Sequence record: ON416862.2
Direction: 5' to 3' (one strand)
DNA: 44,227 bases
Origin: Escherichia phage ASU11
Below, in pieces: positions 1 to 3,000 of the stretch. The position numbers are program-made. How positions within the stretch are numbered: the stretch's first letter is position 1; each line of letters begins with the position of its first letter.

Positions 1-3000
1 AATAATATCTTTAAATATCAGTTGTTTTAATGGTAGTTGCCGTCACATTAACTGCATGACGCAACATTTTTAAAAATCGACGAAGATCGTCCAGGAGCGC
101 CGTTTTTCAAGGGTTGGATAGATGATTCGTTTACCATGTCGACGAACTTCGACGAATTTCGCCGATAAAAAGTGTCCCATACATGCCCCATTGATGCCCC
201 ATAAACAATATCAGGAATTGACACTGGTTATCCATACAGATAAAAATAACACCTGTATATAACCACAGTTACAGGAGGGTGTTATGCGTGTTGAGATCTG
301 TATTGCTAAAGAAAAAATCAGCAAAATGCCAAACGGTGCTGTGGATGCGTTAAAGGAAGAATTAACCCGACGCATCAGTAAACGTTATGACGATGTAGAG
401 GTGATCGTAAAAGCCACCAGCAACGATGGGCTTTCTGTTACACGCACCGCAGATAAAGATTCTGCAAAAACTTTTGTTCAGGAGACGCTGAAAGATACCT
501 GGGAGTCTGCTGACGAGTGGTTTGTTCACTAATAAACACGTAAAATCGGTAACGGCTGGAAATCATTCAATACTCGCACTATCGAAAGTTCACCAACCAA
601 CCGCGACACGTTCTTACATACGAAGTGCCGCGCTTTCCTTAATAATTTTTTAGCAGTACTGTGTAAATGATGAGCGACCTAATCCATGCATGACGCGTAG
701 TGCCTATTGTGCATCTTTCTGCGTCTCTTTTTACTGGACCCAAGCCAATGATGCTGGCGATACCATTCCCGCCAAGCCCACTTACAACAGTAAAATTCGG
801 GGCTCTGCCTTTACATACAATACAATGTTGCACGATTGCCCATCATCAACTCCGTTAATATCTATGAGTAGTAACCCTATGTAACTGTAAAGACGAATCA
901 GCGCTAATTGTGTCTGTCCACATCCCCAAATGTAAAGATATAAGGAGCACCATGATACAGTTGGATCTGATTTACATCCTGTAAATTCTCGTCGATAGCC
1001 ACCCCTGGAAAATCATGTTGCTGGATAAATCCGTATCCTATGTTAGACACAGCGGAATACTCTGTGAAATCAGGACTCGCCTCATATCGGTCACTGATCG
1101 TACCCAGTCTTTCGAAGAAAGCCCTCTCATTCTTTTCATGCCTCATGGCAGCCTGTCGAAGGGCATTCAGGTTACGTAGTCTAAGATGAGCTTCTCGTTC
1201 TGGATCTGCATATCCTTTGAAGTCGGGAACACTCCATCCCAGCTCTTGAGCGACACGACGTGCGAGAATCTCGGTGGGTCCTAGCTCTATATTACTATCT
1301 CCAGATGGATCGCTGGCCCCAGTAACATGATGAATAATCTCGTGAATCAGTCCTTCCTGCCACGATGGCATCTCATAAGAATCAGTATCTGGCGCAACAC
1401 TAAAACTGACATAAGGCTCTTCGTTCTCGTTTTCTCCTGCCTCGCAAATGGGGAGAATTGGTTCTTGCCCGACATCGTATCCATATAATTCGTTACAGGT
1501 TAGTGATTGAATATCATCAATTTTGATAGCAGATTCTCCGTTAAGCTCGTATTCGTTTCTGTATTTAATGCAACCAATGTGTACCTCCTCATTATGAATG
1601 CCATAGCTTACGGCATCACGAAATGTTTGTGATCGGCTCAACGCATCAAGTACAGTGTTGCCAATCATATCGACCGTATGCTGATCGATGAGCCTGCTAC
1701 GGCTGTCATGGACGGCGCTAATTACACTTTCGTATACGTTGCTTAAATCTGCTGCGGAAAGCGGTATTCGCTTGCCTATATCCAAAACGTAATCCGCATA
1801 GGCATTTTCAGCACGATTAGGAGCAACGGCAGCAGAGTATCCAGCAGGGGCAAAAAAGTTGAAGCCAGGTTGGAGAACGGGAATTTTCATATTGATACTT
1901 AATATGGTTTTATATATTTCAGTGCCACCAATTCACTAGCTTACAACCAGAAACTAAAAAAACGTCAGGGCGTTGATAATAATGAATACCAACTTTCTGC
2001 CCATTTATAGTAATATCTTTCGTTATCAGGTTTTGTCTGGCAGCTTCACGTAATATTTCAATACTCTGCAAAGCAACATTTGATGAAATGCTGGATGTTA
2101 TCAATGGCATATGTCATTTACCCCAACAAGACTAAATTTTAGAAAAAACAACTGCCGGGACAACTTTCGCCCCCTGTAACCCCAAATAAGATGTCAGATT
2201 TATCGGCATTAATTTATCTCCCTGTTGAATTAGCTCCTCTATCATCTACTTAACAAATATCCCCCGGACATTGCAACACAAAAACCGGAGCCGGACTCCG
2301 GTTTTTGTGAATCCGTCGGGTTACTTCATCCCGCCAATATTTTCCCACGTCCCGTCAGCACGCAGGATTTGCAGCGGTCTTACCACACACTGTATCTGCT
2401 TTTTATCCGCATCCAGTATCACCACCTGCGTGATTACCCTGTCCTGCTCCGGGATAATGCCATTCTCATCGGACTCCAGAATGTCTGCCGGTCCCAGTCG
2501 CAGTTGTACTGTAAGTAACTCCCCGTTTTCACGGCCATCATGCTTTCCGCAACCGCACAGACGCTGCATAAGTTTTTTTAGTATGTTCATGTCATTCTCC
2601 TGTTCTGCCTGTATCACTGCCCACTTCATCCAGCCCCTTAACATCCTGCCACGGCCCGTCACCAAACCTGACCTGCAAATGCCGAAACAGCCCCTGAACC
2701 TGTGTGGCATCTTTGGGGTCAAGAAAGGTCAGTCCGGTGATGAGTGCGCCATCTGTATCCGGGAACCAGCCATGGCTGTTTGTCTCAATAATGTTTCCCG
2801 GCCCCAGACGGAACCGTATTTGTGTCTCCCCCGGGTCGCCCTTCGGTCCCTGAGGTCCGGTTGCCCCCACCGGGCCAGCCGCACCTGTTTCTCCTTTCGG
2901 TCCCTGTGGGCCTGCCGGGCCTGCTGCCCCGGTGTCTCCCTTTGGACCCTGTGGACCTGCATTTCCCGTCAGACCGGTCTCTCCCCGCTCTCCCCTGTCA

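Follow-up and report, generated by a model that had tools for sequence, protein, structure and literature searches.

Why should a prophage carry, immediately behind its side tail-fibre gene, a second gene for the tip domain of that same fibre? The question is raised by a stretch of 44,227 nucleotides from Escherichia phage ASU11 (sequence record ON416862.2; hereafter the window), which matches the chromosome of E. coli 2013C-4991 (NZ_CP027355.1) with 100% identity and covers the end of a lambdoid prophage beside yecD. Here, on the minus strand, a fibre gene of the EPclA type is followed by a small open reading frame (ORF) whose product contains the C-terminal domain, PfC, that also forms the fibre tip. 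The arrangement is already known, both annotated and published in work on Shiga-toxin phages, and the window adds no new kind of system: in RefSeq the small-ORF product goes under the name 'phage tail fiber C-terminal domain-containing protein', and the equivalent gene in phage AU5Stx1 (KU977419.1) is labelled 'atfT, alternate tail fiber tip'. The puzzle is a narrow one: purifying selection acts more strongly on the copied tip domain than on the fibre's own, yet the copy is dispensable on E. coli K-12. Our answer, held with a little less than even confidence, is that the small ORF encodes an accessory partner of the fibre tip, translated on its own and dispensable.

A stand-alone copy of the fibre tip domain

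The features on which the argument is built are as follows.

3922-3943, minus strand: terminator-like hairpin and T-run between lom and the fibre gene start (found by consensus scan only)
2592-3905, minus strand: EPclA-type side tail-fibre gene, 437 aa from the RefSeq ATG (RefSeq CDS WP_096079837.1 and Pfam)
Fibre residues 3-135: PfN collar domain (PF08400, E = 4e-69)
2823-3155, minus strand: fibre collagen (Gly-X-Y) domain, residues ~253-363 (PF01391; repeat families D1 and D4)
2628-2819, minus strand: fibre PfC tip domain, residues 365-428 in 439-codon numbering (PF06820, E = 1e-34, profile 1-64/64)
2597-2601, minus strand: Shine-Dalgarno (SD) sequence AGGAG, 6 nt before the small-ORF ATG and within the final fibre codons (read from the sequence)
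2321-2590, minus strand: small ORF, stand-alone PfC protein of 89 aa plus stop (RefSeq WP_096079836.1; PHROG 576)
2510-2590, minus strand: N-terminal 27 residues, specific to the small ORF and with no fibre counterpart; predicted short helix, C-G-C/H/Y motif and variable linker
2324-2509, minus strand: PfC domain of the small ORF, residues 28-89, paralogue of the fibre tip (PF06820)
2277-2309: terminator-like perfect 14-bp hairpin with a T-run on either strand, 12 nt past the small-ORF stop (inverted repeat I3)
2278-3141, minus strand: exchangeable module of collagen, PfC, small ORF and hairpin, 864 nt, 96% identical to Stx1 phage AU5Stx1 (KU977419.1)

The fibre has the domain order PfN, coiled coil, collagen triple helix and PfC knob, and with one collagen domain and a length of 437 aa it belongs to the EPclA fibres. 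Ghosh 2012 (PMC3368898) defines the EPclA architecture as PfN, PCoil, Col and PfC, and by that description the gene upstream of the small ORF is a typical EPclA, with PfC as its trimerisation knob. At the opposite end of the chain, the N-terminal domain of Ur-lambda Stf, which is homologous to the fibre PfN, is the collar that fixes the fibre on the tail (PMC12617516).

The first-pass annotation of this DNA had described a duplicated tip domain in a separate small ORF, and both copies do belong to PF06820. The small ORF matched this family, Phage_fiber_C, over the entire profile (1-64/64, E = 6.6e-36) with 122.9 bits, the gathering score being 25 bits, and matched PHROG 576 over its full length (1-89/89, E = 2.2e-59). 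In a BLASTP comparison, small-ORF residues 28-88 aligned with fibre residues 365-427 at 37% identity and 63% positives (E = 8e-13), so that the similarity first seen by eye proved significant; its extent had been put at the last ~70 aa of the fibre and came down to ~62 residues. Thirteen columns were invariant in an alignment of nine sequences (one fibre tip and eight small-ORF sequences). On these sequence grounds, which suffice to establish homology to the fibre tip, the small ORF is an ancient paralogue, or old duplicate, of the fibre's PfC domain, with a similarity far beyond chance.

The 89-aa ORF lies 1 nt past the fibre stop, as first described. On the minus strand, the fibre ends with TGA (2594-2592), a single C follows at 2591, and the small ORF extends from ATG (2590-2588) to TAA (2323-2321). 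Of 85 copies that extend far enough upstream, 82 have the junction CAGGAGAATGAC followed by ATG. The strong SD sequence and the ATG explain the 1-nt spacing as translational coupling, and no promoter-like site specific to the small ORF was found. The best explanation is that the small ORF is a genuine late phage gene with its own translation, coupled to that of the fibre gene.

The range 2321-2722 originally assigned to the small ORF had to be abandoned. It corresponds to a mechanically called 133-aa ORF beginning at a TTG (2722), and the 44 extra codons are non-coding in that frame, with a ratio of nonsynonymous to synonymous polymorphism (pN/pS) of 1.03; the same 44-codon DNA read in the fibre frame gave 0.40. 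The 129-aa version of the small ORF found in GenBank records of the Sp5/AU5Stx1 type is over-extended in the same way.

Selection was assessed on 86 small-ORF copies from prophage loci in IMG/VR, 85 of which were intact. The whole ORF had a pN/pS of 0.14, with 0.07 in its PfC part and 0.28 in the N-terminal 27 residues, while the fibre's own PfC gave 0.245 across the IMG/VR copies and is thus less constrained than the small ORF. The two genes also occur in nearly equal numbers, with 285 IMG/VR loci carrying the fibre tip and 284 carrying the small ORF. When 80 loci were picked by their fibre tip, 75 reached far enough downstream, and the small ORF was intact right after the fibre in 69 of these and frameshifted or interrupted in the other 6. 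Taken together, the intactness, the low pN/pS and the tight pairing with PfC-tipped fibres leave a decaying remnant unsupported. With strong purifying selection and its own SD sequence and ATG, the small ORF does not fit the remnant of tail-fibre cassette exchange that had been one of the first suggestions.

A mobile distal-fibre module and a narrow domain family

The 96% identity to AU5Stx1 extends over 864 nt, beginning at 3141, close to where the collagen domain starts, and ending at 2278, exactly at the end of the hairpin, although the N-terminal halves of the two fibres are merely 36% identical. It follows that the unit of exchange is collagen, PfC, small ORF and terminator. The hairpin at 2277-2309 has a folding energy of −32 kcal/mol (z = −5.3) and, with that at 3922-3943, places terminator-like elements on both sides of the fibre gene and small ORF. 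In short-tailed Stx phages, AU5Stx1 and VT2-Sakai/Sp5 among them, the small ORF is 92-94% identical and follows a fibre of 631-645 aa, and both the TGAcATG junction and the downstream hairpin are present there also. VT2-Sakai H0138, which is Sp5 ORF68, is 92% identical to the small ORF, and the VT2-Sakai record cites 933W L0121/L0122 as equivalents. Judged by these alignments, the module passes between lambdoid prophages with long tails and Stx phages with short ones; it is established that fibre tips travel in modules of this kind together with cognate partner genes, as in stf-tfa.

Sp5 ORF68, H0138, 933W L0122 and AU5Stx1 atfT are all alike in being an orthologous 89-aa PfC-only ORF behind a PfC-tipped collagen fibre. 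The setting differs: in the short-tailed Sp5 and AU5Stx1 the pair lies in the middle of the tail gene block, whereas here it lies in a long-tailed lambdoid prophage at the boundary with the nleC effector locus. The module is found in hundreds of pathogenic E. coli genomes, with a median of 8 matching places per genome for a 101-nt collagen/small-ORF probe. Since it is common in pathogenic E. coli and in long- and short-tailed Stx phages, the role of the small protein could bear on the host range and spread of phages carrying stx and effector genes.

The PfC family is very narrow. When 5.8 billion proteins were searched by a word index, the 120 matches listed, 49-131 aa long with none above 131 aa, placed relatives of the small ORF in E. 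coli, E. albertii and Citrobacter rodentium only. A profile search of 1.84 billion cluster representatives gave 80 matches, nearly all of them fragments or chimeras of the tip type and the stand-alone type, and a scan of species-representative genomes gave two contigs, one of which is the 'Xanthomonas pisi' contig described below. PfC amounts to essentially two paralogues, the tip type and the stand-alone type, which are always adjacent.

A 725-bp contig assigned to 'Xanthomonas pisi' (L084, NZ_JPLE01000138.1) carries a copy of the small ORF with 92% identity, and is probably E. coli contamination of a draft assembly. The only clearly distant PfC relative found is P0142, a 565-aa metagenomic fibre-like protein (positions 3505-5202 of L168, a Logan SRR17035117 contig) in which four tandem PfC-like repeats, VVVLDADxxTATGQMGILQVRRADGTWxEIPALKG, are followed by collagen repeats, so that a PfC knob can be a bead within a single chain.

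How the second tip domain may be used

An alternative receptor-binding tip had also been considered in the first-pass annotation, and inversion, recombination and frameshifting were examined as ways of deploying it. None was found: neither inversion, nor a recombination reservoir in frequent use, nor frameshift fusion is supported. The invertible segments Mu G, P1 C and e14 P resemble this locus in having alternative fibre C-termini beside the fibre gene, but here both PfC copies are on the minus strand in direct orientation. The search for invertible-segment sites found no inverted repeats flanking them, the sole strong inverted repeat being the terminator hairpin at 2277-2309, and no serine invertase or recombinase, of the Gin/Cin/Pin type or other, is annotated in the 7.8-kb stretch around them (2200-4000 ± 3 kb), where the neighbours are lom, J, a truncated NleG-like ORF and nleC. 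An invertible fibre-tip segment is therefore rejected.

A slower use of the second copy can be imagined, in which the small ORF is a silent donor cassette that now and then replaces the fibre PfC by recombination or deletion and so alters receptor specificity. Mondal et al. 2016 proposed such a 'reservoir' role for ORF68 (PMC5155283), the KU977419.1 label 'alternate tail fiber tip' implies it, and it would be served by a homologous domain directly downstream on the same strand. The main interpretation offered in the first-pass annotation was thus already in print. There is also an 11-nt microhomology, GGGACCGGCAG, between the collagen region (3038-3051) and the small ORF (2485-2498), through which a rare chimera can arise: P0063, a draft-assembly ORF at a contig edge, is an in-frame fusion of collagen with the PfC of the small ORF, and a chimera of the reciprocal type is seen in P0121. 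We nonetheless consider a silent reservoir unlikely. At the DNA level the two PfC copies agree at ~55% of positions and share no long stretch, which, with P0063 seen only at the edge of a draft contig, argues against a homologous-recombination cassette. The P0063 junction was absent as a single piece from the best 15 matches among 5,426 complete E. coli genomes, all 15 being two-piece matches with the normal arrangement, no full-length fibre with a small-ORF-type tip was found among the matches listed, and the ceiling of 131 aa on the 120 listed relatives points the same way. A swap by deletion would be irreversible, and a silent cassette would have no use for the N-terminal 27 codons, SD sequence and ATG, all of which are nevertheless conserved (pN/pS 0.28). 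The 1-nt gap does put the small ORF in the +1 frame, and a programmed +1 frameshift or stop bypass at GAA-TGA-C could produce a minority of fibres with two tandem PfC knobs. Termination at TGA is weak when a C comes next, the prfB frameshift site being an example; in 82 of 84 copies the 44 upstream codons contain no stop in the small-ORF frame, and the four PfC-like repeats of P0142 indicate that tandem knobs are structurally possible. This is nevertheless the least likely of the explanations considered. GAA-TGA-C contains no slippery site, as GAA in the P site would need to re-pair on AAU, and the junction RNA is unstructured (z = +0.51). The overlapping frame is neutral (pN/pS 1.03), synonymous variation in the final fibre codons is not suppressed, and in-frame readthrough of the TGA would give just 17 extra residues before the next stop. 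The SD sequence and ATG fully account for the spacing, and Mondal et al. reported no frameshift-inducing sequence that could fuse ORF67 and ORF68 (PMC5155283).

If the second copy is not deployed on the fibre, it might do nothing at all, as a functionless leftover of an old tip replacement that hitch-hikes with the fibre. The non-essential Sp5 ortholog (PMC5155283), the 6 of 75 tip-selected loci in which the ORF is frameshifted or interrupted, and the shortened C. rodentium versions (P0070 and P0097) could all be read in this way, but a leftover is very unlikely to show pN/pS values of 0.07-0.14 against 1.03 in the adjoining out-of-frame control, to be more tightly constrained than the fibre tip (0.245), and to keep its frame, start codon and SD sequence intact despite saturated divergence (37% amino-acid identity). 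Alternatively, the product might act away from the virion as a free soluble knob, for example released at lysis onto the receptors of debris or neighbouring cells, or with some function in the lysogen or in the animal host. Lacking a PfN collar, the small protein cannot mount on the tail alone (for the role of the collar, see PMC12617516), it is non-essential for plaque formation, and in long-tailed prophages it sits at the boundary between phage and effector locus. We find a free knob improbable, as neither a signal peptide nor a canonical lipobox is evident on inspection of the sequence, no promoter-like site was found for the gene itself, it is in the middle of the tail gene block in short-tailed Stx phages and not among the cargo genes, and a decoy would compete with the phage's own fibres.

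Accessory fibre partners in other phages provide a different kind of precedent. In phages of the T2/T6/S16 type, a separate small gene after the distal fibre gene encodes gp38, which binds the fibre tip. The likeness is in the downstream small gene, and by analogy gp38 offers a model of how the small ORF might cap the tip, but the two are not homologous, and gp38 is hypervariable, whereas conservation is stronger in the small ORF than in the fibre tip (pN/pS 0.07 compared with 0.245). Lambda Tfa and the P2/Mu tail-fibre assembly proteins (PF02413) are likewise small proteins whose gene is right downstream of the side fibre, and they share co-transfer with the distal fibre, which for stf-tfa is classic module behaviour; here the gap is 1 nt and the 864-nt module holds both genes. 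However, the sequences are unrelated, with no Pfam match besides PF06820 at E ≤ 1 and no NCBIfam match for the small ORF, which derives from the tip domain itself, and the Sp5 ortholog is not required for fibre function (PMC5155283).

The reading that we favour, an accessory partner of the fibre tip, would work as follows. The small protein would consist of a short N-terminal helix and linker followed by the PfC domain, and its homology to the fibre tip suggests that it may form a trimeric PfC knob like the fibre's. As a non-essential partner presumed to contact the fibre tip, it may cap or stabilise the tip or modulate receptor binding, and its gene would occupy the place that Tfa- or gp38-type partners have in other phages. 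The proposal draws on the homology, the purifying selection, the pairing with PfC-tipped fibres, the joint transfer in the module and, from published work, the dispensability of the Sp5 ortholog. A more specific form of this proposal, which we regard as possible but doubtful, is that a tip-derived trimeric PfC knob docks like-with-like on the fibre PfC, or acts on it as a transient template, and in this way determines stability or host range on natural hosts. If true, a class of fibre accessory would have been born by duplication of the receptor-binding tip, and not from the Tfa or gp38 lineage, and docking or templating would explain why a gene that can be lost in the laboratory is held to tighter constraint than the tip from which it was copied.

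In-frame deletions of Sp5 genes of unknown function by Mondal et al. 2016 showed that ORF68 is non-essential, and the fibre gene ORF67 essential, on E. coli K-12 (PMC5155283), which accords with a dispensable partner. Several results weigh against an accessory partner. Apparently no defect of the ORF68 knockout on K-12 was reported (PMC5155283). Ghosh 2012 (PMC3368898) showed that PfC alone trimerises and re-nucleates the collagen helix, and that the recombinant fibre is trimeric without the small ORF; no mention of a downstream PfC-only ORF was found in the searched passages of that paper. Since the recombinant fibre trimerises alone and no K-12 defect was reported, any partner role must be subtle or host-specific. 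Thus, of the tip-derived chaperone that had been suggested at the outset, an essential role does not stand, and a dispensable helper or partner is the part that we retain. A search of the literature gave no expression, proteomic or virion-presence data for the small ORF. Its AlphaFold2 (AF2) model is monomeric and of moderate confidence, with a mean predicted local distance difference test score (pLDDT) of 68; it has an N-terminal helix (residues 3-11), a low-confidence linker and five beta strands in the PfC part, where block-mean pLDDT is ~63-81. The AF2 model of the fibre tip was unusable (pLDDT 49.5), fold searches gave no informative match, and no solved structure containing a PfC domain was found. 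Finally, the copies used to measure selection are closely related (pS ~0.11-0.13), perhaps homogenised among co-resident prophages, and are therefore not independent samples.

Neighbouring genes and minor observations

The N-terminal segment of the small ORF carries a C-G-C motif at residues 12-14 (2549-2557), replaced by C-G-H in phages of the AU5Stx1 type and, in a few copies, by C-G-Y. The variants are RLCGCGKH, RLCGHGKH and RLCGYGKH, with the first Cys invariant among intact copies. An axial metal or disulfide site at C-G-C in a trimer would be pure speculation, and a metal- or disulfide-binding motif was set aside, as the second Cys is His or Tyr in some phages. A lipoprotein or signal peptide in MNILKKLMQRLCGCG was also rejected by inspection, because the supposed hydrophobic stretch is charged and position −2 of the supposed lipobox is non-canonical.

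Collagen length differs between copies of the module (388 compared with 439 codons; 2833-3999 in locus L043 compared with 2592-3911 in the window), the PfC domain and small ORF being constant, and the differences arise by in-frame loss of Gly-X-Y units. RefSeq annotation of other strains places a 77-bp 'tail assembly protein' pseudogene right after the small ORF (3043-3119 in locus L002, corresponding to ~2242-2318 of the window). Its translations gave no family match, and as it also overlaps the terminator hairpin we read it as an annotation artefact.

On either side of the fibre gene and small ORF, the gene order at this end of the prophage is as follows.

4640-8131, minus strand: J, first in the gene order of the prophage end
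3970-4569, minus strand: lom, after J
1919-2110, minus strand: truncated NleG-like ORF, 63 aa, absent from the RefSeq annotation
904-1890, minus strand: nleC, intact, a type III effector zinc protease (Peptidase_M85, HEIIH motif), just beyond the tail module

The 63-aa ORF at 1919-2110 matches the N-terminus of a 229-aa NleG-like protein that occupies the same position in another prophage (E = 5e-7), and is probably a truncated effector gene. Module copies elsewhere precede other effector genes, which is the usual layout of an 'exchangeable effector locus'. Further along the window, the minus-strand intervals 29382-29633, 27762-27976 and 37010-37198 hold a prophage tRNA cluster (Arg-TCT twice and Met/CAT) and Rfam matches to STnc100, C4 antisense RNA and isrK.

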